Assembly: GCA_041661045.1 (NCBI GenBank)
Contig: JBAZVE010000001.1
Location: 1-32,000, forward strand
Length of the DNA stretch: 32,000 nt
Reading direction: 5' to 3'
Origin: Candidatus Saccharimonadota bacterium
Lineage (GTDB): Bacteria; Patescibacteriota; Gracilibacteria; UBA1369; 2-02-FULL-48-14
Position 1 is the stretch's first letter, and each line of letters begins with the position of its first letter. A model generated the notes under the pieces. That model was not told the origin of the DNA and did not search any database. It was given only the letters and a program-made list of their open reading frames with translations. Below, piece by piece: positions 5,000 through 20,091 of this stretch. The position numbers were made by a program, and so were the translations under genes.

Positions 5000-5497
5000 C
5001 TACAAGCACCTTTTGAGTAGATACTCTATAGCTTCTGTCGGATTTTTTAGCCTCTCTATAGGATTACAAACAGATTCACTGAGGCTTATCTCTCCATTTT
5101 CTGCTCTTTCAGTTAATGTCCAACCAGGAATACTGGCTCGAGAGTCTTTTACCCTCCATCCCTCTTCTATCACAGCATATCTAGGATGTAGCAATCCCCT
5201 TGCAATTAAGAAATCACAAGCCTCTTGAGCTGTTGTAAATCGAAGATCCGGCAGTTCTTCACGAGGAATAGCGGCAACTAGTATTCTTCTAAATGCTTCC
5301 TTATCCCATTCGCCATAGATATACTCCATCCGGCTAAGGTAAGTAGTTTCTTCTTCATTCACCCCTGCACGCATTGCAGCCTCCCATTCCTGATAATCAG
5401 CATCTAATCCACTTGCTCTTAAACCTCTTACATACTCCAATACTAATGACCATGTTCTTGGCATTTCTGGTTGTATATCCTCCCTTGGTACTCTCAT
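5000..5497 (-). CDS. Hypothetical protein (165 aa), no family recognised
   Basis: The ORF starts at an ATG. It has a near-consensus promoter just upstream and hairpins downstream. I recognise no motif in it. Confidence 0.55.
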   Translation of the reverse strand: MRVPREDIQPEMPRTWSLVLEYVRGLRASGLDADYQEWEAAMRAGVNEEETTYLSRMEYIYGEWDKEAFRRILVAAIPREELPDLRFTTAQEACDFLIARGLLHPRYAVIEEGWRVKDSRASIPGWTLTERAENGEISLSESVCNPIERLKNPTEAIEYLLKRCL

Positions 5498-5520
5498 AAT
5501 AATTGAATTAAAACATATAG

Positions 5521-5549
5521 AGTATAGCCATAAAATATGCTCTTGTCAA
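5521..5549 (-). promoter_or_regulatory. Sigma70-type promoter for the 165-aa ORF
   Basis: The minus strand reads TTGACA (5549-5544), a 17-nt spacer, then TATACT (5526-5521). The -10 element lies 23 nt upstream of the ATG at 5497. Confidence 0.55.
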
Positions 5550-5553
5550 ATTC

Positions 5554-5579
5554 AAAGGCCCTCGCGAAGAGGGTCTTTT
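5554..5579 (-). terminator. Intrinsic terminator hairpin downstream of the small membrane-protein gene
   Basis: The sequence is aaaGGCCCTCgcgaaGAGGGTCtttt, a 7-bp stem (one G-U pair) with a 5-nt loop. It has A/T runs on both sides. Confidence 0.55.
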
Positions 5580-5657
5580 ATCTGAGATGGCACTCATTCC
5601 AAGGATCGTCTTCATTATTATAGCTCCGCCACGGAACAAAGAAAAGTACCTGTTCTT

Positions 5658-5745
5658 GTGCGCCTAAACAGCAAGCAAAGAAGGTATTTTGAAAATAAAA
5701 TGGCTTATTTAAGCCATAAATTGAGGCAAAATCTGTGCGCGCGCA
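5658..5745. repeat. Repeat copy B, with an internal insertion of about 45 nt
   Basis: It reads gtgcgcctaaacagcaagcaaagaa, then an insert containing the hairpin tggcttatttaagcca, then aaaatctgtgcgcgcgca. It is bracketed by the 9-bp inverted repeat cgcctaaac (5661-5669) / gtttaggcg (5751-5759). Confidence 0.6.
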
Positions 5746-5783
5746 CTGGCGTTTAGGCGAACAAGGTGCATGTGTGACTGGGT

Positions 5784-6098
5784 TTACTTTTTGAAGTTTA
5801 TGCTTATGTGTACTTTTGATTTTATATACAAGATGGTTTTAATCACAAGATAAGCCATCACTATGTTGAATAATGGCAGAAGCACCATAAACAATATTAT
5901 TTGTGCAACCGGTAAATCCCCAATTTTCAATAAATATAAAAATCCAAAATAATGCGCGTTTAGCATGGTAAAGAGAAGTAGTGCACCTCTCCCGCTACCA
6001 ACGATTTGCCACTGAATTAGGGTTAAAATAACTGTAATAACGAAATACAAAACTCCAATGATTATTGCCATCTTTAGTGTTTCCCTTTCGTTTTTCAT
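5784..6098 (-). CDS. Small hypothetical membrane protein (104 aa, about 3 TM helices)
   Basis: It has three hydrophobic stretches (IIIGVLYFVITVILTLI, ALLLFTMLNAHYFGFLYLL, IILFMVLLPLFNIVMAYLVI). The DNA is very AT-rich. Confidence 0.55.
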   Translation of the reverse strand: MKNERETLKMAIIIGVLYFVITVILTLIQWQIVGSGRGALLLFTMLNAHYFGFLYLLKIGDLPVAQIILFMVLLPLFNIVMAYLVIKTILYIKSKVHISINFKK

Positions 6099-6147
6099 AA
6101 TCTTAAGGTTTATCTTTGCCGTCTTGATAAAGGGGTTCTGTTAAAAA

Positions 6148-7284
6148 TTGGATACTTCGAACCATAGCATGCCTGCTCAATCTGTTGCAACCTGGAATAA
6201 TGTCTTGAAAAAGGGTATAATAGTGGGGATGGCAGCAAAAGACTTAAATAAAGATAAAATAGTAGACCAAGGAGAGGAGGGCGTTCCTGAACTTGTGAGT
6301 CGTTATTGGCGTTTAGCCAGGAGTGCGGCCAAAGGAGAAATTGCCAATGGCAATGCCGCATTTGAAATGGCTGAGATTTTGCATGTATTGTTTGCTAACT
6401 CGGGGCTCCATCCATTCCTTTCGGTCCGAAGTCACGATCCAGCGGACTGTGACCTCGCCATGAGTAATATCTCTATATTGGCAGAAAATCTATGGTTGGC
6501 AGCTCAGCTTAAATTCGGTGAGGAAAACCGTTTTTATCCTCCGGATTACGCTGAAGCGCGAGACCAACTTGTGGATGGACAAACTCAAAAACTTGAAATC
6601 AAAGAGACTGAAAAAGCTGGCCAAGGACTTCATGCAAGAGAAGCCATAAAAGAGGGAGAAATTGTATTTGTTTGTTCAGGGAGTCGAAGGATGTTGACTA
6701 CTCCGTATGAGTCTACCGAATTGATTGAAGTGCCTGATATTAAGGCAAAAAGCACTCGATTACGACGATTTTTTTATGAAAATCCCAACGAGCATCACCT
6801 TGTAAGTCCACGCAATCCGGACTCGATCTATCCCAATGCGATCTGTATCGATCAAGAAGGAATGGAAGCTTTGATCGGGCTACGATTGGAGAATCCGAAT
6901 ATCAAAGTCAACATTTGGCTGGATCCCTTTGAAGCATGTCCTTTACGATTTTTAAATCATTCTTGTGAGCCCAATGTAAAACGACAGGCGGATGGGGTGA
7001 CCTTTGTGGCGATGAGATCCATTCCACCCGGCGAGCAGTTGACTTGTGACTACTCGACCTTGGAGGTGAACCCGGATTGGAAAATGAAGTGTCAATGTGG
7101 TCCCAAATGCAGAGGAACTATTGGGGGCATCCAGTCCTTGCCTGCAGAACTGCTGCAGCAGTATGGAACGGACCTTCCAGAGTTTATGTTGGATTTATTT
7201 AAGGAATCACACCCTGAGCTGAATCGCGATGTCCTTGACCGAATAGAATTGACTCGATGGGGTATGGGACTGATTCGGCTTTAA
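6148..7284 (+). CDS. SET-domain protein (putative protein lysine methyltransferase) with post-SET Cys cluster
   Basis: The SET N-region is GQGLHAREAIKEGEIV. Other motifs are RFLNHSCEPN, GEQLTCDYS and the post-SET CQCGPKC. The track start is TTG 6148; an alternative ATG lies at 6169. Confidence 0.8.
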   Translation: MDTSNHSMPAQSVATWNNVLKKGIIVGMAAKDLNKDKIVDQGEEGVPELVSRYWRLARSAAKGEIANGNAAFEMAEILHVLFANSGLHPFLSVRSHDPADCDLAMSNISILAENLWLAAQLKFGEENRFYPPDYAEARDQLVDGQTQKLEIKETEKAGQGLHAREAIKEGEIVFVCSGSRRMLTTPYESTELIEVPDIKAKSTRLRRFFYENPNEHHLVSPRNPDSIYPNAICIDQEGMEALIGLRLENPNIKVNIWLDPFEACPLRFLNHSCEPNVKRQADGVTFVAMRSIPPGEQLTCDYSTLEVNPDWKMKCQCGPKCRGTIGGIQSLPAELLQQYGTDLPEFMLDLFKESHPELNRDVLDRIELTRWGMGLIRL

Positions 7285-9441: not shown

Positions 9442-11577
9442 TCACTTCACGGTGACGGTTTTGCTGAATGCGTCGACGATGCCGGTGCTTTCGGTGATTT
9501 CTAGGGTGATGGTGTAGGTGCCCGGGGCATCGTAAGTGTGGCTGCCGGGTTTGCGGTCAAAGCTGATTTCTCCATCCCCAAAGTCCCATTCGTAGTTGTC
9601 GATGGTCCCCTGAGAACAACTGGGGTCCACCACCACAATGAGGAATCCTGTGCCGGTGCTTTCATTCACGGTGAAACAAGCGGTGAGGGCAACGGGACGA
9701 ACCACGATTTGCATTTCGGTGGAATCCCTGGCTCCGTCGGCTCCCACCACCGTGAGCACGGCGGTGTAAGTTCCCACGGCGTTGTATTTATAAGTCACCG
9801 TTGCATCGCCAATATACAAGTCTGCTCCATCTCCAAAATCAATTTCGTACGACACGATGCTGCCTTCTTTATATGAGGAGCCGGAAGCGTCAAAACTCAC
9901 TGTAAGCGGGACCTCTCCATTGCTGGGAGTGGCTTCCAGTTTTGCGGTGATGCCCTGAGCGGTGACTTCAATATTTACGGTGCTTTCCTTCGTGTTCCCG
10001 GCTGCATCGGTCACCACGAGCATGGCTTCGTATGAACCCACTTCTCCATAAGTATTTGAAACCTTGCTTCCACTGTCGTCCACAATCCCATCTCCATCAA
10101 AATCCCATTCGTAGTCCACGATGTCATCCTCCGGATCGGTGGAACCGGAAGCATCAAAGCCCACCGTGAGTGGCACGGGACCGGAGACCACTCCGGAGAC
10201 CGCCGCAGGACTGGTTTTTATGGACGCGCTTGGAGGCGTGCCTTCTTCCACCACTTCGAGGTCTAAAATGCTTTCATCCGCATTGCCGTCGGCGTCCAAA
10301 ACGGTGAGCACCACTTGGTAGCTTCCGACTTCTTCATAAGTGTGTTTTACACTACGGCCTTCCAATTTTGTGCCATCGCCCATGTCCCACTTGAACTTCA
10401 CGATTTTTTGTTCGGTGGCTTGAGATAAGTTCCCATCAAACTCATAGCGTTCATCCGTAAAATAGACCGCACCTTCTCCAAGAGGAGGCGTGATCACCGC
10501 TCTTAAACCTCCCACACTGCCCGCCTCGATCACTTGGCTGGTTGTGGCGGATTCTCCATTGTTGTCGGTCACACGCAAAGACACTTCATAATTTCCTTCC
10601 TGAGTGAATTCGTAGGATACCACTTCTCCAACCGCATCATCGTAGCGGCCGTCTTCATCAAAATCCCATTCGTAAGAAACAATTTCTCCGTCGGGATCAA
10701 AAGAACTTCCCGCATCAAAATTCACGGTGAGCGGAACTTCCCCACTGCTGGGATTGGCCACAAAGGATGCGGCGGTGAGTTCATTTTCTATCACCACTTC
10801 GGTGCTGGTTTCATAATCGAATCGAGCCCCGCTTTTCAGATCCATGTATTCCACGGTGAGCACCACGGTGTAGATCCCGTTGCCCTGTGCTTTTTGCTTA
10901 TATTCATGGGTCACTTTTTGTCCGTTCGCGATGCTGCCATCTCCAAAATCCCAGGTGTAAGAAAGAATGCTGTACACGGAAGTTTCTATTGGAATCAAGC
11001 TTGCATCAAAACTGATGCTGATGGGTGAAGTGAGTCCAATGGTGTTTTCCGGCACCGTTACGATGGGAGAACCATATCGCAACTCTTCCACCAAACGAGG
11101 CCCTAAAAACCATATTCCCACGAGCCACAAAACGCCGGTGAGCAGGAATCCGATTCCAAATTTTAAAGCCATGCGAGAGAACTTTTTCTTTTGTTCCAGC
11201 TCTTCTTTTTTTACGAGCAAAGAACGGATGAGCCCATATAAGGCGGCGAGCATCGTTGCAATGACCACGGCTCCCATTTGAATGTTGAAGAGTGTGTAGA
11301 AAAATTTATTGAAGCCCGCTTGAGAAATGGGAAGATATTTAAAGAGGATGAACTCCGTGTTTGCCAAAAAGGCGGCCCACAGCACCGTGAAGACCAAGAG
11401 CAGAACAAAAACTACGGATGAAACAATGCCGAGTCTTTTGAGCATTCGCTTGCGCTTGATTTTGGGATCAAGGGCGGGTGCGGCGGGAGCTGCAGGGGCT
11501 GGGCTTGGCGCCTCCGGAGCAGGCACTGCCGGGATCGGCTCTGACGACGGTGTGGGGGCTTGAGAAAATTCTTCCAT
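9442..11577 (-). CDS. Membrane protein: Pro/Ala-rich N-terminus, 3 TM helices, 6 PKD repeats
   Basis: There are six W/I-D-F/M-G/D-D-G cores (YTWDFGDGS, YEWDFDEDG, FKWDMGDGT, YEWDFDGDG, YEIDFGDGA, YEWDFGDGE). ATG 11577 (MEEFSQ) lies 1 nt after the upstream stop; the track start at 11658 would overlap the upstream gene. Confidence 0.85.
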   Translation of the reverse strand: MEEFSQAPTPSSEPIPAVPAPEAPSPAPAAPAAPALDPKIKRKRMLKRLGIVSSVVFVLLLVFTVLWAAFLANTEFILFKYLPISQAGFNKFFYTLFNIQMGAVVIATMLAALYGLIRSLLVKKEELEQKKKFSRMALKFGIGFLLTGVLWLVGIWFLGPRLVEELRYGSPIVTVPENTIGLTSPISISFDASLIPIETSVYSILSYTWDFGDGSIANGQKVTHEYKQKAQGNGIYTVVLTVEYMDLKSGARFDYETSTEVVIENELTAASFVANPSSGEVPLTVNFDAGSSFDPDGEIVSYEWDFDEDGRYDDAVGEVVSYEFTQEGNYEVSLRVTDNNGESATTSQVIEAGSVGGLRAVITPPLGEGAVYFTDERYEFDGNLSQATEQKIVKFKWDMGDGTKLEGRSVKHTYEEVGSYQVVLTVLDADGNADESILDLEVVEEGTPPSASIKTSPAAVSGVVSGPVPLTVGFDASGSTDPEDDIVDYEWDFDGDGIVDDSGSKVSNTYGEVGSYEAMLVVTDAAGNTKESTVNIEVTAQGITAKLEATPSNGEVPLTVSFDASGSSYKEGSIVSYEIDFGDGADLYIGDATVTYKYNAVGTYTAVLTVVGADGARDSTEMQIVVRPVALTACFTVNESTGTGFLIVVVDPSCSQGTIDNYEWDFGDGEISFDRKPGSHTYDAPGTYTITLEITESTGIVDAFSKTVTVK

Positions 11578-11578
11578 A

Positions 11579-14500
11579 TTAATGCTTGGTGATTTTAGTG
11601 AGCTGAGCTTTGAATATGAAGCTGATCGCGGCGAGTGCCGTGATGAGGGCGGAAACAATGAGCACCATCATTTCGCTTGGCGTGGCATTGAACAGATTAG
11701 CACCTCCCAAGGATCCTTCAAAGACCACTTGCAGGGTGGATATGTCTTTTTCTCCGGTGGCTTTGTCGTTTACGGTGAGCTTGACCACCACTTGACCGTA
11801 GGATTTATAAAAAGGTGTTTTCCAAGATCCTGCAGAATCGTCCACAAAATCCCTGTCATTGTCTCTCACACCATCGTTGTCGGTGTCGTAGAAAATATTT
11901 TTATCCAAGACGAATTCCAGGTCTTCAGAACCTCCCTCGGCTCCATAATAGAATGAGACTTCATCCCCATCTTTCTCCAAGACCACTTGGTTCAAACTGT
12001 TGGGTTGTGGTGTGCTGGTGAGGAGGGCTTGTACTGAATCCAGCGGGCTTGAGACGACCACGGTTTGTACGGTGGAATCGGTTTTTCCAAAACTGTCTTC
12101 CACAATCAACTTCACTTGGTAGGAACCGTAATCGGCATATTCAAAGGAGGGGTTTTTCGTGGTGGCATCCGTGTCATTTTCCGGGTCTGTATCTCCGTTG
12201 GTGTCCGCGGTGAGATTGAAGTCCCATGAAGCACTGAGGAATTCCGCTCCCTGAGCGGTGTCAAAGGAGGTCTCATTTTTGAAATCCACCATTTTATCGT
12301 TCACGATGGTGGAGAATTTGGCTTCGGGCGCTGTGCTTTCGCTCACATTGACCGTACGCGTTACGGTGTCTGCCTGGCCCGTGCTGTCCACAATGGTGAG
12401 ACGAGCTTCATAAGTGCCCAAGGCGGGATAGGTGTAGATTGGATTCTCTTCAAAAGAATCGGTGTCGTCGTCGGGGCTTCCGTTTCCATTGCTGTCCACG
12501 GAAAGATCAAAATCCCAATACTGCCCTTCCAATTTTGCGTCGTTCTCAAAATCAATGATGGAATTGTTTTGGAAACTCACGGTGGTCCCCGTTATTTCGG
12601 TGAGGAAGGCGGCTTCGGGCGGTGCGGAAAGTGCGTCCACAAAAATAGTGAGGGTCTCCGAAGGGTCGGTGGCACCCGCATCGTCTTCCACTTTCAATTG
12701 CACTTCAATTCCCTCCGGGTGCACTTGAGAGAACTCGTATTCAAAAGAGGCTTCTTCCGTGGGTTCGTTGTTCCAGAATCCATCGCCTTCAATGTCCCAC
12801 CAATAGTTCACAATTTCTCCATCCGTGTCGTAAGAAGTGCTGGAGAAACTGACCGGTTCCCCCACATAAACTGAGGTGCGATCCACAGAGATCCCCGCCA
12901 CCGGAGTTTCGTTGGGCCCATTGGTGACTTCCAGGGTTGGGATGGATGCGCTGTCCAAAAAGTCGGAACTTGAGACCTCGTTGCTGTCGTCATCGGTGAC
13001 TTCCACTGCAAATCCATATTCCAGAGTTTCTCCCGTTTTTCCTTTTGTATCGATGGTCATTTGGAACTCCGTGCTTTGAGCAATGATTTCCCCGAGTGCT
13101 TCCGCGGTGTCGTTGAGATCGTAATACCACGCCTTGATGAAGGTGATTTCTCCGTCTTCATCAAACGCGTCCACGCTAATGTCCACTTTGAGAGGCGTTT
13201 CCAATTTATCTCCTTCCGGGGTCACCGTGATGCCGCGAATCACCGGGTCCATGCCCTCAATCAGAATGTTGACGGAAGTTTGATCCATTACGGTGCTGTC
13301 GTCTTCATCACGAACGGTGAGCGTTACCGTAAAAGTCCGCTGTTCGGAGAACGAGTGGGTGACCGTGCTTTGAGAGGAGGTGACTCCGTCTCCAAAATTC
13401 CAGCTGTAATCCAAATTATCCGTACTTCCATCCACATTAATAGATTCCGTCGCATCAAAAGAAAATTTGGTCTTTATACTTCCTTTGAGTGAGCTCCCCG
13501 TTCCAATATCTTCTTCCGCTCCAATCGCAATCACGGCAATGGGAGCATCACCAGCTCCAATGTAGACGCGTTGCTTGATACTGTTTTCGTCATCCTCATC
13601 ATTTAAAGCGGTGAGTACCACTTCAAACACTCCGGCGGTTTCGTACACATGCGTCAAAATCGTTTCTCCTCGAGTGATGGTGTCGGTGTAGTCGCTGGAG
13701 CCGTCTCCGTAATCGATTTCAAAAGCGGTGGCCGTGGCACTGATCGCCGTGAATTCCACTTCCGCTTGGCCGTTTGCATCCAAATGTCTGGCGGTTTCTC
13801 CTTGGATCTCCATGCCAATGTCCAGCGTGGAATCGATGGTGATTGTACCCACTGCCGTATCACTCTTTTTGAGCTCGGCGGAATGTTGGTCATAAACAGT
13901 GAGGCTCACACCGTAATCTCCCTTTTTAAGGAATTGCACCGTGAGTTCTTTGTTCTCGTTTTCTGCGCTGAGGATGGTGTAATCCTCCCCTTCCGTGCCT
14001 TCAAACTCCCATTCAAATGTGAGAGTGTCTCCTTCATCCGGATCATAACTTTCCCCGGCATCAAAGAAGAGTGTTGCAGGCTGCGTTTGGCTTGGGACCG
14101 TGTATTCATAAGAAGCCACGGGTGCCGTGGATTCCACCAAAAAGCTGAGTGAAGCGGTGTCGGTTTTCCCACTTCCATCCGAAACGATGAGTTGCATGGT
14201 GTAGACGCCGGGTTCTTCCAAAGCAACCGCAATGACTTCCCTGTTGTTCTCTTCTAAAGGTACTGCCGTGCCCTCCTTTGTGAGGGTCCAGGAAGTGCTT
14301 ACGATTTTTCCAATGTCGGTGGTGGAGCCGGAGGCGTCGAATTCAAAAATGGTGCCCACGGTGCCGGAGCTGGGGCTCATGGAGAACCGGGCGGCCGGCG
14401 AGGCCACGAATAAAGTAAAATATTTACGGTCTTTTACTCCGGTGTCGTCTGTGACGGTGAGAGAAAGGTTGTACGAGCCGGCCTCTCCATATACATGGGT

Positions 14501-16564
14501 CACCGTGCTGCCTCCTTCTTGTCCGTAAGATCCGGATGCGGTTTCACTGTCTCCAAATTCCCATTCGTAATACACAATGCCTCCCTCCGCTCCGGTGTTG
14601 CCATCTCCATCGGTGGTTTCACTGGCATCAAATGTGATGCCTCCTTCCGCTTCGGACATCGTTACTTTATAAGTTCTTTGATCAATGGCCGGAAAGGATC
14701 TGAAATCGGCGATCACGCTCGCGGCCTCTGTCCCCGCTTGTGCCGTGAGCACGATCATGGATTTGGAAGGTTCCACTTCCACCGTTACCATTGACACTCC
14801 CGCGGCAATATTTTCATCTTGGCTGCGAACGCGCACTCGTATTCGGTAGGTCCCCGGTTCATTGTAGGTTGCGCTCACCGCGTCTCCTTCCGTGTTTTCG
14901 GAAGTCACGGCGGCGGTGTTCAAAGTGCCGGAGCTTTCAAAGTTTCCATCTCCATTCAAGTCCCATTCAATTTGATCGTCTTCCACCGTTTTTCCACTGG
15001 GGTCTTCCGTGCCAAGCACATTGAACCGTACGATCAAAGGATCGTTGCCGGAAGTGGCGGAGGCCTTGAGGCGCACCTTTACAAATTCCAGATTCTCCAC
15101 CAAGTTGTGGAGGTCATTCATGGCGGTCACAATTTCTTGCGCCGTTTTTGCGTTCACCGTTTCCAAAGAACTGTCCAGCAGTTCATCGGCCGCGTTGAAG
15201 GCGTCCAAAACTTCCGTGAGTTTGGATCCGGAATCAAAGCCCTGTCCTTCGGTATCAAAAAGATCTTTCATCTCTCTAAATCGTTCCAGCAAGGCTCCCA
15301 CTTCTTCAATATAATCCCCTTCGGCAGCCGTTTGAATGGCCACAATATAGGAACACACTTTGTCATCGATCTCACGAATATCCATATCGTAGACCGTGTA
15401 GCCCAAGGCATAGGTATAGAGTTCCGTGCTCTCATCATAATCTCTTGTGTTGCAGGCATCGGTGGTGGTGACCCCTCGATCGAGTTCCTGAATGATTTCT
15501 TCCACGGAGGCGGCGGAAGCTTTTGGAATGAGACGAGCAAAGAATCGATCCAAGTAGCTGGTTTGAGTGCCGCTTCGCAAATAGTTATAAAGCGCCTGAG
15601 CGGCTTCGTAAGTTCCACTCAAGGAATCCACTTCTTGTTGAATGTCTTGGATTCCCTCACGCAGCATGTCGATGTAATCTTCCACATCGTCCTCATCAAT
15701 AAGAGTGTATTGATCAGCATAATCGCTATCGGTGTTTTGAGCCCATTCGAGCACATGCTCTAAAAGCCCATTGATGGTCCAATCCGTCTCTTCCACATCA
15801 ATAATGATGGGCATTTCCACCGACTGCATGTACGCCACTTCCTGGCTCACTGTGAGTAAAGTTTGGTAGGAGTCCAAATATTCCGCGCTGATTTCCTCAA
15901 TTTCTTCCAAAACAAACTCCGTATCAAAAGAAGCTCCGGTTTCCGTAATGGTGGTTCCATCCACTTCTCCCCCGCTTCCATCTCCGGAACCGTCACCCCC
16001 TCCTGCGCGGAGCAAAGTGTTCACCATGGCGAAGGACCCCAGAATGATTAAAATTCCAATAGCGGCATAGCTGATGGCCTTTTTTCCGGTGGAGGCCATG
16101 TCTTCATCTCCACGGCTGAGCACATACATGACTCCTCCGTAGACTACAATCACCACGGCGATCAATCCTAAAAAGGACAAGGCGTAGTTCACAATGGTCT
16201 GAATAAATTCTCGCGCACTCTTGTTTTCCGTGAGCTGGGGTGCGTAACCGGCTTCATCCGGCGCTTCAAGCTCTCCTTCCAATTCCGTAAAATCCACTAT
16301 CTCGTCGCTGGTGTCACAGCCCAAGGCTCCGGCCAAACTTTCGTCCAATTCCGCACATTGCGATTCGATGATGTCGCCCTGTGACGCATCGGTATTGGTT
16401 TCACCGGTTTCCACGCTAAGGTCAAAGATCTCATCCAAATCATCCACTAAATCTGCGGAAGCCGGTAGCGCCCATAGGCTATTTATCCCTAAAATAAGAG
16501 AGAAAAGCAGCGGAGTGATGCGGCGGCGAAGGTTCATATGTTGGAGGGCCTGGCGTTTTTCCAT
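11579..16564 (-). CDS. Giant surface protein (about 1661 aa): signal peptide, pilin-like TM hairpin, acidic helical region, about 11 PKD/Ig-like repeats, C-terminal TM anchor
   Basis: The signal-like N-terminus is LLFSLILGINSLWALPASA. The hairpin is LGLIAVVIVVYGGVMYVLSRGDEDMASTGKKAISYAAIGILIILGSFAMV. PKD cores include YEWEFGD, FEIDYGDGS, YSWNFGDGV and YWWDIEGDG. The C-terminus is MMVLIVSALITALAAISFIF plus KAQLTKITKH. The start is uncertain: ATG 16564 or ATG 16537. Confidence 0.85.
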   Translation of the reverse strand: MEKRQALQHMNLRRRITPLLFSLILGINSLWALPASADLVDDLDEIFDLSVETGETNTDASQGDIIESQCAELDESLAGALGCDTSDEIVDFTELEGELEAPDEAGYAPQLTENKSAREFIQTIVNYALSFLGLIAVVIVVYGGVMYVLSRGDEDMASTGKKAISYAAIGILIILGSFAMVNTLLRAGGGDGSGDGSGGEVDGTTITETGASFDTEFVLEEIEEISAEYLDSYQTLLTVSQEVAYMQSVEMPIIIDVEETDWTINGLLEHVLEWAQNTDSDYADQYTLIDEDDVEDYIDMLREGIQDIQQEVDSLSGTYEAAQALYNYLRSGTQTSYLDRFFARLIPKASAASVEEIIQELDRGVTTTDACNTRDYDESTELYTYALGYTVYDMDIREIDDKVCSYIVAIQTAAEGDYIEEVGALLERFREMKDLFDTEGQGFDSGSKLTEVLDAFNAADELLDSSLETVNAKTAQEIVTAMNDLHNLVENLEFVKVRLKASATSGNDPLIVRFNVLGTEDPSGKTVEDDQIEWDLNGDGNFESSGTLNTAAVTSENTEGDAVSATYNEPGTYRIRVRVRSQDENIAAGVSMVTVEVEPSKSMIVLTAQAGTEAASVIADFRSFPAIDQRTYKVTMSEAEGGITFDASETTDGDGNTGAEGGIVYYEWEFGDSETASGSYGQEGGSTVTHVYGEAGSYNLSLTVTDDTGVKDRKYFTLFVASPAARFSMSPSSGTVGTIFEFDASGSTTDIGKIVSTSWTLTKEGTAVPLEENNREVIAVALEEPGVYTMQLIVSDGSGKTDTASLSFLVESTAPVASYEYTVPSQTQPATLFFDAGESYDPDEGDTLTFEWEFEGTEGEDYTILSAENENKELTVQFLKKGDYGVSLTVYDQHSAELKKSDTAVGTITIDSTLDIGMEIQGETARHLDANGQAEVEFTAISATATAFEIDYGDGSSDYTDTITRGETILTHVYETAGVFEVVLTALNDEDDENSIKQRVYIGAGDAPIAVIAIGAEEDIGTGSSLKGSIKTKFSFDATESINVDGSTDNLDYSWNFGDGVTSSQSTVTHSFSEQRTFTVTLTVRDEDDSTVMDQTSVNILIEGMDPVIRGITVTPEGDKLETPLKVDISVDAFDEDGEITFIKAWYYDLNDTAEALGEIIAQSTEFQMTIDTKGKTGETLEYGFAVEVTDDDSNEVSSSDFLDSASIPTLEVTNGPNETPVAGISVDRTSVYVGEPVSFSSTSYDTDGEIVNYWWDIEGDGFWNNEPTEEASFEYEFSQVHPEGIEVQLKVEDDAGATDPSETLTIFVDALSAPPEAAFLTEITGTTVSFQNNSIIDFENDAKLEGQYWDFDLSVDSNGNGSPDDDTDSFEENPIYTYPALGTYEARLTIVDSTGQADTVTRTVNVSESTAPEAKFSTIVNDKMVDFKNETSFDTAQGAEFLSASWDFNLTADTNGDTDPENDTDATTKNPSFEYADYGSYQVKLIVEDSFGKTDSTVQTVVVSSPLDSVQALLTSTPQPNSLNQVVLEKDGDEVSFYYGAEGGSEDLEFVLDKNIFYDTDNDGVRDNDRDFVDDSAGSWKTPFYKSYGQVVVKLTVNDKATGEKDISTLQVVFEGSLGGANLFNATPSEMMVLIVSALITALAAISFIFKAQLTKITKH

Positions 16565-16580
16565 GGTATTATAACGGTTT

Positions 16581-17549
16581 TTATCTGGACGCATCAAGCT
16601 CAACCACTGTGTTCACAATGGCGAAGGCGGCGAGGGCTAAAATGATGCCCACGGCAGCACCCATGATGATCTTTTTAGATTTGGCCACATTGTCTTCGTT
16701 CTGCACTCCCAAGACATAGAGGTAACCCGCATATAAGAGGAAGGCGAAGGAAAGTGTGCCCAAGGTTCCCGCAATAAAGTTGGTGACTTGTACAAAAAGA
16801 AGTTTGGCTTCTTCCACTCCAAGCGACTTCCCTTGATTTTGGAAAAGAATTTCTTTGACCACAAACTCTGAGATTCCTATTACAAAGAGTCCCACCAAAG
16901 CCCAAGTGATTTGTTTTTTGGCCTTACCCACTTGATCTTCACTCGCCGAGCCTCCCACAAAACGCATGCCCGCCATGATGAGAACCGAGACGGCAATGGA
17001 CCCAATTAAGATTTGAATCAAGCTGTAAATTCCTCGAAAGAGGGTACTGGCTTGCCGTCCAAACTCTTGAGCCCCGGACTCTCCTCCCCTTAAAATTCCT
17101 CCATCCGCTCCAAAGAAAACCTCCACCAAAGAGTCGGACATAAAAATGATGACTAAGCCCTGCAGACCATAGCTTATAAAATTCTTGGATTGAGAAAGCA
17201 CTTCTTCACTTTCTTTTCCCGCAGTGACCATTCGCACGCCCATGATCACAATAAAGAGGATGGTGACCGGGGTTATGATGAGTTTGAAGAAATCCAAAAA
17301 GCGTTGGATGGCGGCCACAATGACATTGGCGCCCTCCCCTTGTTCCGAGAATGTCGGGAAGCTGATACCTCCGGAGGGCTCTTCATCACTGCTGGTGGGG
17401 GCAGTGCCGTCCTCCACCTGAGTGCTTTCCTCGCTTACATTTTGCTGAAAATCGTCAATGATGCTTCTAAAGTCCAAAGCATCGGCCACCGCGGCACTTG
17501 CGGTGAGCAGTTGTATACTTGTGAAAATGAGGAAGAGGTATTTTTTCAT
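16581..17549 (-). CDS. Membrane protein with signal peptide and three tandem TrbC/VirB2-like (T4SS_pilin-like) hairpin modules
   Basis: The signal peptide is MKKYLFLIFTSIQLLTASAAVA. It has three TM-loop-TM units, with loops AGKESEEVLSQSKN, GGSASEDQVGKAKKQ and GVQNEDNVAKSKKI. Confidence 0.75.
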   Translation of the reverse strand: MKKYLFLIFTSIQLLTASAAVADALDFRSIIDDFQQNVSEESTQVEDGTAPTSSDEEPSGGISFPTFSEQGEGANVIVAAIQRFLDFFKLIITPVTILFIVIMGVRMVTAGKESEEVLSQSKNFISYGLQGLVIIFMSDSLVEVFFGADGGILRGGESGAQEFGRQASTLFRGIYSLIQILIGSIAVSVLIMAGMRFVGGSASEDQVGKAKKQITWALVGLFVIGISEFVVKEILFQNQGKSLGVEEAKLLFVQVTNFIAGTLGTLSFAFLLYAGYLYVLGVQNEDNVAKSKKIIMGAAVGIILALAAFAIVNTVVELDASR

Positions 17550-17552
17550 GAT

Positions 17553-18482
17553 TTAGAATTTTCCTGCAATGATGGTGGAAACAAGGGCAAAGGCTCCATA
17601 GATCACAATGACGCCTATGACAGAGTTCATGATGATCTTTTTCGCAAGTCCGCTGCGTTCTTCATCCCCTCCCGCCGTGATATACAAAAGTCCTCCCGCC
17701 ACAATACCCAACATCATGATGGGTCCCACAAAAGAGACTACGATGTTGGTGACGGCCACCATTTGCTGCACTCCTTCGTTTTGATCCAGCACCACAATGG
17801 TTTTATCGGCCGATTGATTGAACTCCGCCACATAAAACACACGGCGAATCACCATGTCGGAGACCATGACCATCAAGAGACCCGCGGCGGAAAGTGCCAT
17901 GCTTTTCTTTGCATTGCCCACTTCTTCTTCGTTGTCTCCGGAAATCACCATTACGGCCCCGCTTCGAATAAAGAAGAGCGCTGCCAGTCCTCCGAGTAAA
18001 TATTTCACAAAAGTAATGATGAGGCGCGTGGTGTTGTCAAAAAGTTCCACTCGCTCCACCAGCTTTTCGGGGTCGGAGAGGAAGTTCCCTTCGCGGTAAT
18101 CGAAAACTTCCGCGATGGGGCCCGCAATACTGATCATCAAAAAGCCCACCAAACCATAGACCAGGGATTTCCTTTGGGTCTTGGCGGTCTCTTCGTTGTC
18201 TCCGGAAATCACCATGGTGAATCCTGAAACGACGATGAAAAGCAAGGCTACCGCCCCCACAATAATCCGTAGATTTCTGGCGACCGGCCCCAAAAGATTT
18301 TCGAATTTTTCGAGGGCCGTGTCCCCTTCCGGCGCGGGTAAGTCCAAATTTTCGGCGGAGGGTAAGGGCAAAAAGTCAGCCAAAGCGTGTGAAGCAGAAA
18401 ACACGAATATCCCCAAGAATAAGGCTAAAAGCAGACCTCCCATATGGATTTTTCCCAATCTTTTCATCCAAAGCTTTGCCAT
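17553..18482 (-). CDS. Membrane protein with signal peptide and three tandem TrbC/VirB2-like (T4SS_pilin-like) hairpin modules (paralog of 16581-17549)
   Basis: The signal peptide is GGLLLALFLGIFVFSASHALA. It has three TM-loop-TM units, with loops SGDNEETAKTQRKS, SGDNEEEVGNAKKS and AGGDEERSGLAKKI. Confidence 0.75.
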   Translation of the reverse strand: MAKLWMKRLGKIHMGGLLLALFLGIFVFSASHALADFLPLPSAENLDLPAPEGDTALEKFENLLGPVARNLRIIVGAVALLFIVVSGFTMVISGDNEETAKTQRKSLVYGLVGFLMISIAGPIAEVFDYREGNFLSDPEKLVERVELFDNTTRLIITFVKYLLGGLAALFFIRSGAVMVISGDNEEEVGNAKKSMALSAAGLLMVMVSDMVIRRVFYVAEFNQSADKTIVVLDQNEGVQQMVAVTNIVVSFVGPIMMLGIVAGGLLYITAGGDEERSGLAKKIIMNSVIGVIVIYGAFALVSTIIAGKF

Positions 18483-18502: not shown

Positions 18503-18511
18503 ATTATACCA
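18503..18511 (-). promoter_or_regulatory. Extended -10 element (TGgTATAAT) upstream of the pilin-like/PKD operon
   Basis: The minus strand reads tggTATAAT, with the hexamer 20 nt upstream of the ATG at 18482. No good -35 element is present (TTTTCC at 17-nt spacing). Confidence 0.4.
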
Positions 18512-18534
18512 GAAAAACAGGTTTTGGAAAAGAC

Positions 18535-19395: not shown

Positions 19396-19464
19396 AGTTG
19401 ATGTTGCTTGCGCCAGTTTTTAATAGGCACTGAAGTGCCTGGCCTCCGCTCCGCTGCGGCTTGT

Positions 19465-20091
19465 ATGCAGAAACTCACCCTCTTCTCGGTTCTGCTTTCC
19501 ATCTCCGTGATTCTTATTGTGGGAGATATTGTGGTGCACGATTATTTGGCCACTCCCCCTCCTGTGGAAGGCACACCAGAAAATCCTGTTGAGGAATTGA
19601 ACCCCGATGAAGAAGCTTCGGTGGATTTGGCGGATGAAGCGCTCCCTATTGTTTTGGAGTCCACCCTGAGTTCCGGACTCTTTACTCAAGCCGGCTTTTT
19701 AAATCCCGTCCTTAAAGACACACTCTTTTCCGGTTTGGTTTTCCAGTTTATATCTTTTGCAGATCAAGAAACGGCCACCGTCTACCAATGGAATGTTTTC
19801 GATGGTGAACAATTTATTGGTTCAATATATGAAATCAAGTACCCCACGGAGACGGGAAGTTTCCAGGGTTACCTGGCCCTTCGTGAACGAGCCATGAGCC
19901 TCACCGACTTGGGGTCCGTGAATGAAGTGAACAATTATGGGGATGCTTCTTTTTACTTCAATCATAAGACTAAAATGAAGACGGTTCATGTGATTCTTCG
20001 CACCGGATCCGATGTCTATGGCTTTGAATACGCGCAAACTTATCACGAAAACATGAAAAATGTGTTTGACAGCCTCAGTCCTCTTCTGTAG
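19465..20091 (+). CDS. Hypothetical N-terminally anchored protein inserted between nusG and rplK
   Basis: It begins MQKLTLFSVLLSISVILIVGDIVV (a TM anchor) and is followed by an acidic linker. I recognise no family. ATG 19465 is preferred over the track start at 19408. Confidence 0.5.
   Translation: MQKLTLFSVLLSISVILIVGDIVVHDYLATPPPVEGTPENPVEELNPDEEASVDLADEALPIVLESTLSSGLFTQAGFLNPVLKDTLFSGLVFQFISFADQETATVYQWNVFDGEQFIGSIYEIKYPTETGSFQGYLALRERAMSLTDLGSVNEVNNYGDASFYFNHKTKMKTVHVILRTGSDVYGFEYAQTYHENMKNVFDSLSPLL

Follow-up and report, generated by a model that had tools for sequence, protein, structure and literature searches.

Two adjacent genes of a Gracilibacteria contig encode triplicated pilin-like hairpin modules within a conserved operon that also encodes PKD-repeat proteins

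In the first 32,000 nucleotides of contig JBAZVE010000001.1 (GenBank assembly GCA_041661045.1, Candidatus Saccharimonadota bacterium, an uncultured groundwater member of the Peribacteria, GTDB lineage Gracilibacteria; UBA1369), hereafter the window, two adjacent minus-strand genes, B309 and A322, each encode three tandem hairpin modules of the kind found in pilins of type IV secretion systems (T4SSs). An earlier note made from the sequence alone had listed two pilin-like open reading frames (ORFs) of 322 and 309 amino acids (aa) there, and both their coordinates and their lengths proved exact. The start codon of A322 lies 3 nt after the stop codon of B309, and the genes are followed by those of a giant protein with one further module, G1674, and of a second protein with PKD repeats. 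We consider it about evenly balanced that B309 and A322 are single-chain pseudo-trimers of VirB2-superfamily hairpins, which would co-assemble with the G1674 module in a 3+3+1 arrangement into a scaffold of fixed composition for PKD adhesins.

The T4SS_pilin domain PF18895 was matched in three separate stretches by each of B309 (85.2 bits) and A322 (75.2 bits) against a cut-off of 26.6 bits, in agreement with the three units per protein described earlier, and once by G1674 (residues 129-189, 32.6 bits). All 64 members of the B309 family (B family) that were scanned matched this domain. With three consecutive PF18895-bearing genes, the locus forms a pilin array in the sense used for the candidate phyla radiation (CPR), namely at least two PF18895/VirB2-like genes in tandem or spaced by one gene (Quinonero-Coronel et al. 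2025), with the difference that modules of the window are fused inside genes as well. The TrbC/VirB2 model PF04956 was matched by 43 of the 64 B-family members (best E 3.5e-7); B309 itself scored 15.1 bits (E 0.027), below the gathering threshold of 27.9 bits, and A322 gave no match. Among the multi-module proteins retrieved with a profile of the window modules (see below), P0262, P0229 and P0220 scored 144.6, 109 and 60.8 bits with PF04956, far over its threshold; given these scores of 61-145 bits, the link between the module class and the VirB2 superfamily is firmer than it would be from the window proteins alone. The profile comparisons support a relationship of the modules to the VirB2 superfamily, but not direct membership of PF04956. 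In NCBIfam, the model that A322, B309 and the G1674 module matched best was NF045849 (the Mbov_0395 family of pilin-like conjugal transfer proteins; 32.6, 34.1 and 24.9 bits, all below its 40-bit cut-off), whose members, from integrative and conjugative elements of Mycoplasma, differ from the window proteins in having a single module and lying on mobile elements.

To compare the modules, family alignments of B (112 sequences) and of A (the A322 family, 98 sequences) were cut into module sub-alignments and aligned with hhalign, and reversed alignments served as the control for transmembrane (TM) composition. All 15 module pairs were related above the controls and aligned loop on loop, with E values from 1e-5 to 1e-14 and scores of 33-77, whereas the reversed alignments gave scores of 10-27 and E values from 1.7e-4 to 0.35; the margin was narrowest where module 3 was compared with modules 1 and 2. 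These results uphold the earlier view that the genes are paralogs, each with an intragenic triplication. The best cross-family pairs were A1-B1, A2-B2 and A3-B3, indicating that the triplication predates the gene duplication that gave rise to A and B.

A homologous module in the giant protein had also been expected, and the G1674 module aligned in register with all six modules of B309 and A322. The seven window modules, which are 18-30% identical, have in common an invariant Gly ending the first TM helix (TM-a), a Glu in the loop and a Gly in the second TM helix (TM-b). The G1674 module was closest to the C-terminal modules A3 and B3 (33-38% identity). These three terminal-type modules have a TM-b of 22-25 hydrophobic residues with the motif G-[AS]-F-A-x-V-x-T, whereas the TM-b of the internal modules has a hydrophobic core of 14-15 residues, the last of which is small and precedes D, E or G.

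The order TM-a, charged loop and TM-b described for every unit was recovered by two methods. Hydropathy analysis showed a signal peptide and six hydrophobic segments in each of B309 and A322, with Kyte-Doolittle (15-residue) maxima of 1.7-2.9 in the segments compared with at most 0.82 in the linkers. AlphaFold2 (AF2), run with the family alignments, predicted a signal-peptide helix and three long hairpins for both B309 (H56-92/H97-126, H138-180/H185-216 and H234-269/H274-306; predicted local distance difference test, pLDDT, 67.5) and A322 (H73-113/H115-146, H156-199/H204-235 and H245-280/H285-315; pLDDT 75.4). The charged loops quoted in the earlier note correspond to residues 93-106, 181-194 and 270-283 of B309. 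The helix preceding TM-a, described as amphipathic, was clearly so in A2 and in the G1674 module (G1) and borderline in B1 and A1, but it was not amphipathic in B2, B3 and A3. Three features point to a topology with the N- and C-termini of each module outside, the short charged loop in the cytoplasm and six TM helices per protein: a signal peptide is present, every module has an even helix count, and the linkers are acidic as opposed to the K/R-bearing loops. With both ends outside, modules could be strung head to tail, and this would be the only arrangement that allows such a fusion.

Both families are highly conserved. Homologs of B309 formed 135 clusters at 90% identity (300-312 aa for most among those listed) and homologs of A322 formed 106, with the source labels Peregrinibacteria, Gracilibacteria or Patescibacteria; where names are given, which is rarely, they read 'type IV secretory pathway VirB2 component', 'pilin' or 'hypothetical protein', and the T4SS_pilin tag is already attached to these proteins in public databases. 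A survey of one genome per GTDB species yielded 55 loci, 53 of them with both triple-module genes; essentially all came from metagenome-assembled genomes (MAGs) of Peribacteria/Peregrinibacteria type, and one was a single-module pilin of Saccharibacteria. All 53 loci showed the same module pattern, down to 29% identity: a three-module gene, a second three-module gene and, wherever the contig reaches it, a giant gene whose product (~1500-2030 aa) has exactly one module. A PKD-repeat protein was detected after the giant gene in 41 of the 53, and most of the remaining contigs stop before that point. The operon is divergent from nusG wherever the upstream flank is present, with a lineage-specific ORF, rplK and rplA farther out; secE was detected in only ~10 loci under the ORF length filter used. 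The genes of B, A, the giant PKD adhesin and the second PKD protein form a vertically inherited operon.

The sole departure among the 53 loci was L032 (9962-10902), in which the first triple-module gene is split into ORFs of 182 aa (one module) and 147 aa (two modules), either by a frameshift or sequencing error or by natural fission. Three bins labelled 'Nitrospirota' were among the survey loci and are probably contaminated; loci L043, L046, L047 and L051, from MAGs with this label, hold the complete Peribacteria-type operon, L043 with the nusG-L11-L1 flank as well, which most likely reflects binning contamination of those MAGs. An artifact in which sequencing, assembly or gene calling had merged three pilin genes has a negligible probability. 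Nothing was found in its favor, though arrays of separate pilin genes exist in other CPR bacteria, and it is ruled out by the same uninterrupted three-module frames of ~300-390 aa in 53 independent genomes and by more than 100 protein clusters per family.

The linkers between fused modules are 26-31 residues long. In the B family they were as conserved as the TM helices, with F127, D128, G132, F148, Q240 and N246 among the invariant residues, and across 53 species linker length was nearly constant; the region after the signal peptide was indel-rich. Motifs kept across these species include, for B, GPIAE-FD---GNF, VER--LFD and DQNEG and, for A, ADSLV-VFFG and SEFVVK-ILF--QG. The earlier note had proposed a search for conserved cleavage motifs between modules, and this search returned only loosely signal-peptidase-like small/acidic pairs that were inconsistent from module to module. 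The invariant 3+3+1 count, the conserved linker geometry and the obligatory linkage to PKD giants suggest that the chains remain intact. The earlier note had left the choice between an assembly of fixed stoichiometry and a polyprotein cleaved into subunits; the conserved count and linkers and the lack of a consistent motif tilt the evidence toward a single chain of fixed stoichiometry and disfavor the polyprotein. The membrane ring that it had named specifically was supported by no result.

Next, a profile of the seven window modules was compared with 1.84 billion representative proteins, giving 54,709 proteins with E<=1e-3, of which 229 had E<=1e-30. Among the best 150 matches, all but two had at least three modules (~96 with three, the rest with 4, 5, 6, 7, 8, 10, 11 or up to 16), and fusion of 2-16 modules per protein was seen in other CPR bacteria and in Altiarchaeales-type archaea. 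In the multi-module proteins the median module spacing was 88 residues, modules made up ~73% of the chain, and the chain ended ~3 residues past the last module; their linkers were rich in G/S/T/P and had no motif in common. Some neighboring modules, as in P0122, were nearly identical, which points to recent intragenic amplification. Six- and seven-module proteins occurred within arrays of single- and double-module pilin genes (loci L005, L065 and L066). In L006 the genes that come after that of an eight-module protein encode, in order, a pilin, a pilin-PKD fusion and a PKD protein, and in L067 a seven-module protein precedes a PKD protein, with a TrwB/VirD4-type coupling protein encoded 3.7 kb away; these two loci suggest that the association of modules with PKD proteins was repeated in independent lineages. 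The whole class of 3-16-module proteins sits unremarked in metagenomes as 'hypothetical protein'.

Two archaeal loci, L007 (10001-15328) and L008 (4175-9247), one on a contig named Altiarchaeales, encode proteins of 1039-1775 aa with 10-16 T4SS_pilin/TrbC modules beside a 617-aa neighbor. These genes are conserved between the gene of ribosomal protein L39e and an Mrp-type antiporter operon, and no secretion genes were in view around them.

In the single-chain scaffold that we favor, B309 and A322 would be exported by the Sec pathway, lose the signal peptide and each insert six TM helices. The three hairpins of a chain, tethered by conserved extracellular linkers of fixed length, would form a covalent pseudo-trimer, and the seven hairpins (3+3+1) would pack side by side like the pilin hairpins of conjugative pili. 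On the resulting heteromeric assembly of fixed composition, lying in the membrane or extruded from it as a short fiber, the PKD-repeat adhesins would be anchored or displayed for contact with other cells or with surfaces. The fused chains would correspond, in covalent form, to the multi-gene, divergent pilin arrays of other CPR bacteria, with subunit order and stoichiometry fixed; three hard-wired hairpins would restrict the possible assemblies, as neighbors have to follow a set order and lie no farther apart than the tether allows. That giant PKD adhesins invariably accompany the gene pair suggests that the modules may anchor host-contact proteins, in the membrane or on a fiber, rather than form pili for DNA transfer. 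Such an anchoring role, if true, would bear on the attachment of ultrasmall episymbionts.

Several results weigh against this scaffold. We know of no experiment or structure that shows pilus formation by any PF18895 protein, and the name T4SS_pilin derives from a weak resemblance to TrbC and from the position of such genes beside virB4 in other CPR bacteria. Direct comparison with VirB2 of Agrobacterium tumefaciens (from pTi1D1609) by hhalign was not significant (E 0.04-0.09). The predicted TM-score (pTM) of the AF2 models was only 0.45-0.46, so that the mutual packing of the hairpins is not confidently predicted. Foldseek comparison of both models with the PDB gave no match at E<=0.001, the top matches being generic helical bundles, an outcome that is uninformative for long helical hairpins; a sequence search of the PDB with the module profile returned only a chance match to TBP. 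No part of a T4SS, be it VirB4, VirB6 or a coupling protein, was found in the window or within 10 kb of the operon in the 53 loci, so that any T4SS needed for extrusion would be encoded elsewhere or be absent; the T4SS gene-cluster neighborhood by which VirB2-type pilins are recognized was accordingly lacking from the window and these flanks. Co-assembly of A, B and the giant protein is suggested by one observation, their invariant co-occurrence. Finally, the pairs SIA/G, VS/D, MS/D and IS/E (slash, putative cut) at the ends of the internal TM-b helices resemble signal-peptidase sites.

The last point belongs to the polyprotein alternative, in which signal peptidase I or another protease would cut after the internal TM-b and release three different mature pilins of ~8-10 kDa from each chain. 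An internal TM-b would run from the inside to the outside, is preceded by K/R and has the short hydrophobic core followed by a small residue and D/E/G, a layout resembling the n-h-c regions of the proteins' own signal peptides (ALA/D and AVA/D). The released pieces would be sized like single-module pilins (precursors of 106-135 aa in L005 and L065), and the two genes would supply six pilin species, equal in number to the pilins of the six-gene array of Southlakia epibionticum (PMC12857230). However, the candidate sites are inconsistent (position -3 is Phe in A1), and a rule as permissive as -3/-1 can be satisfied by chance. Cutting would leave a TM-b of 14-15 residues compared with 22-25 hydrophobic residues in terminal and single modules, and across 53 species the linkers are conserved in sequence and length over their entire extent, beyond any site. 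The G/S/T/P-rich linkers of the other multi-module proteins have no motif in common. Taken together, we regard cleavage into separate pilins as unlikely.

Two further alternatives keep the chains intact and change their function. The triple-hairpin proteins might be static, VirB6/CedA-like platform parts of a secretion or uptake machine, perhaps the 'missing' VirB6 of the class Gracilibacteria, in which VirB6 homologs were reported absent and extreme divergence has been suggested (PMC12102498). The N-terminus of the VirB6-like CedA is reported to be homologous to the CedA1 pilin and VirB2 to have weak similarity to VirB6 (Beltran et al. 2023, PMC9905601), and six TM helices are within the range of VirB6-like proteins. 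CedA/VirB6 proteins are polytopic and contain a VirB2-like hairpin, as do the window proteins, but they combine one pilin-like unit with unrelated helices instead of a tandem array (PMC9905601), and no sequence similarity to the window proteins was detected. PF04610 (TrbL/VirB6) was unmatched in all Pfam scans, which covered the window proteins and the 64 B-family members, and hhalign of the B family with A. tumefaciens VirB6 (from pTi1D1609) gave E 0.6. The operon encodes PKD proteins that resemble adhesins but neither an ATPase nor any further component of a T4SS, and proteins of up to 16 modules misfit a VirB6-like design; we find a platform role highly doubtful. Alternatively, the module could be a generic two-TM oligomerization unit for which the label 'pilin' is misleading, with a role in shaping the membrane as a scaffold, in forming a channel or in anchoring surface proteins as a filament-free raft. 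No PF18895 member has been structurally characterized, T4SS genes are missing from the 10-kb flanks, the operon adjoins secE-nusG and ribosomal-protein genes like a housekeeping envelope component, and the archaeal 10-16-module genes are neighbored by L39e and Mrp antiporter genes, with secretion genes not in view. Against this, PF18895 genes adjoin virB4 in many other CPR genomes (PMC12102498), some multi-module proteins are strongly linked to bona fide TrbC/VirB2 models, and the seven-module gene of L067 lies close to that of a T4SS coupling protein. A role of this kind appears quite unlikely to us.

The single-chain scaffold can be set beside known systems. In the VirB2/TrbC/TraA pilins a signal peptide precedes two long hydrophobic helices, a short charged loop connects the helices, and both termini are outside. 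This hairpin layout of the PF04956 pilins (T-pilus, RP4 and F-pilus) is common to the window modules, and the hidden Markov model similarity ranges from weak to strong. They are single-module proteins processed to ~7 kDa monomers, some of them cyclized, and encoded beside virB3/virB4 (e.g., in L009), whereas the window proteins have three fused modules per chain, no T4SS genes nearby and scores below the PF04956 cut-off. In cyclic pilins (TrbC of RP4, VirB2 and TrhA of the H-pilus), the N- and C-termini of the hairpin are near enough for a peptide bond, and a covalent link at the termini is thus compatible with assembly. The cyclic pilins, however, join the two ends of one subunit post-translationally, whereas the window modules are fused genetically, the C-terminus of one to the N-terminus of the next.

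The PF18895 arrays of CPR bacteria, such as SEML1_0006-0019 of S. epibionticum and the 'Sec-secreted array' of TM7x, have the same domain, the CPR lineage and divergent side-by-side modules in common with the window. A total of 441 T4SS-linked arrays of VirB2-like pilin genes with 2-11 genes each have been described in CPR, with a mean identity of ~25% (PMC12102498), which is similar to that among the window modules. The arrays consist of separate genes with their own signal peptides, usually near virB4, whereas the window modules are fused as 3+3+1, linked to PKD proteins and not near virB4. The six-gene array of S. epibionticum is essential (PMC12102498, PMC10633639, PMC12857230). This organism is the one tractable CPR model, and a pilus on a T4SS of Gram-positive type would itself be unusual (PMC12857230, PMC10633639).

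PF18895 has been reported as the dominant freshwater-specific domain (10.1101/2025.04.23.650224). The part of the supplementary tables of PMC12102498 considered here contains no Peribacteria or Peregrinibacteria rows, and the Peribacteria genome paper lists type II secretion (T2SS) and type IV pili but no T4SS. In the literature searched, whose coverage is incomplete, separate pilin-gene arrays were the only arrangement described, with no fused, tandem, concatenated or polyprotein pilins, in line with the statement of the earlier note that covalently joined VirB2-type modules are not a described form. Thus, both the domain and the CPR pilin arrays are known, and the fused architecture with a conserved adhesin partner is undescribed in that literature. 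Repeated PF18895 matches are bound to be recorded in the Pfam architecture tables. More broadly, and tentatively, covalent 'poly-pilins' might be a principle of their own for constructing VirB2-type assemblies, one that CPR bacteria and Altiarchaeales-type archaea would have in common, with chains of 2-16 modules; in Peribacteria they would form a 3+3+1 surface organelle or membrane scaffold that displays PKD adhesins, encoded by a core operon beside secE-nusG with no adjacent, and possibly no, T4SS.

Table 1. Positions of the genes, modules and promoter-like site of the operon in the window.
Feature	Position	Strand	Description
B309	17553..18482	minus	First operon gene, 309 aa (ORF, Pfam, AF2)
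Module B1	18093..18335	minus	B309 aa 50-130; loop SGDNEETAKTQRKS
Module B2	17823..18074	minus	B309 aa 137-220; loop SGDNEEEVGNAKKS
Module B3	17556..17798	minus	B309 aa 229-309; loop AGGDEERSGLAKKI; terminal-type
A322	16581..17549	minus	Second gene, 322 aa (ORF, Pfam, AF2)
Module A1	17106..17342	minus	A322 aa 70-148
Module A2	16836..17084	minus	A322 aa 156-238
Module A3	16584..16826	minus	A322 aa 242-322; terminal-type
G1674	11579..16603	minus	Giant protein, 1674 aa (ORF, Pfam, module alignment, synteny)
G1674 module	16004-16252	minus	G1674 aa ~118-200; terminal-type
Fourth gene	9442..11577	minus	PKD-repeat protein, ~711 aa; likely start MEEFSQ at 11577
Promoter-like site	18503..18530	minus	TTTCCA-16-tgTATAAT (extended -10); consensus match only

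The signal peptide of B309 comprises aa 1-35 (...HALA/D) and is followed by the three T4SS_pilin hairpin modules, the last of which, B3, carries the motif GAFALVST in its long TM-b. In A322, a signal peptide of aa 1-22 and a variable acidic N-terminal region precede the three modules. The promoter-like site is located 20 nt upstream of the ATG of B309, within the intergenic region that separates this gene from the divergent secE, and the total count of promoter-like matches in that region was not above that of shuffled sequences.

G1674 consists of a signal peptide, the one pilin-like hairpin, a helical region of ~300 aa, ~9 PKD domains, a C-terminal TM helix and a basic tail, and from this layout it would have a membrane anchor at either end. 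The TTG listed as its start precedes the end of A322, with an overlap of 23 nt, and the true start may lie slightly downstream. At the N-terminus of the fourth gene's product, a Pro/Ala-rich cytoplasmic tail is followed by three TM helices, with a KKEELEQKKK loop in the TM2-TM3 hairpin. This hairpin was considered as an eighth module and rejected, as it scored ~0 with the module models, a similarity that is not significant. A 2026 preprint describes the Pam pilus system of CPR bacteria, whose RbmA-like protein, PamR, was weakly matched in NCBIfam by both PKD proteins (9442-16603; 30-35 bits, cut-off 300 bits); these matches probably reflect common Ig/PKD-like folds only. A relation of the hairpin modules to the Pam pilus was likewise discarded, since that pilus uses Ig-fold donor-strand pilins unrelated to hairpins. 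In more distant loci, additional downstream genes encode TM-anchored, surface-protein-like products with Ig- or fibronectin-type repeats, as judged from their sequences.

Two other segments of the window showed lineage-specific features. The G+C content of positions 5001-7000 was 0.40-0.42 compared with ~0.47-0.52 elsewhere, and this stretch spans a 165-aa ORF without a Pfam match (5000-5497, minus strand) and the gene of a SET-domain protein (6148-7284, plus strand). Neither was detected in the related loci reaching that side (L001, L015 and L028), where FtsJ-GidB follows directly, and the stretch may be a lineage-specific insertion. On the other side of the operon, a 227-aa ORF (19408-20091, plus strand) with an N-terminal hydrophobic segment and no Pfam match lies between nusG and rplK. 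An ORF was present at this position in 43 of the 53 loci, nearly all of those reaching that far, and it is a lineage-specific insertion into an otherwise universal gene cluster.

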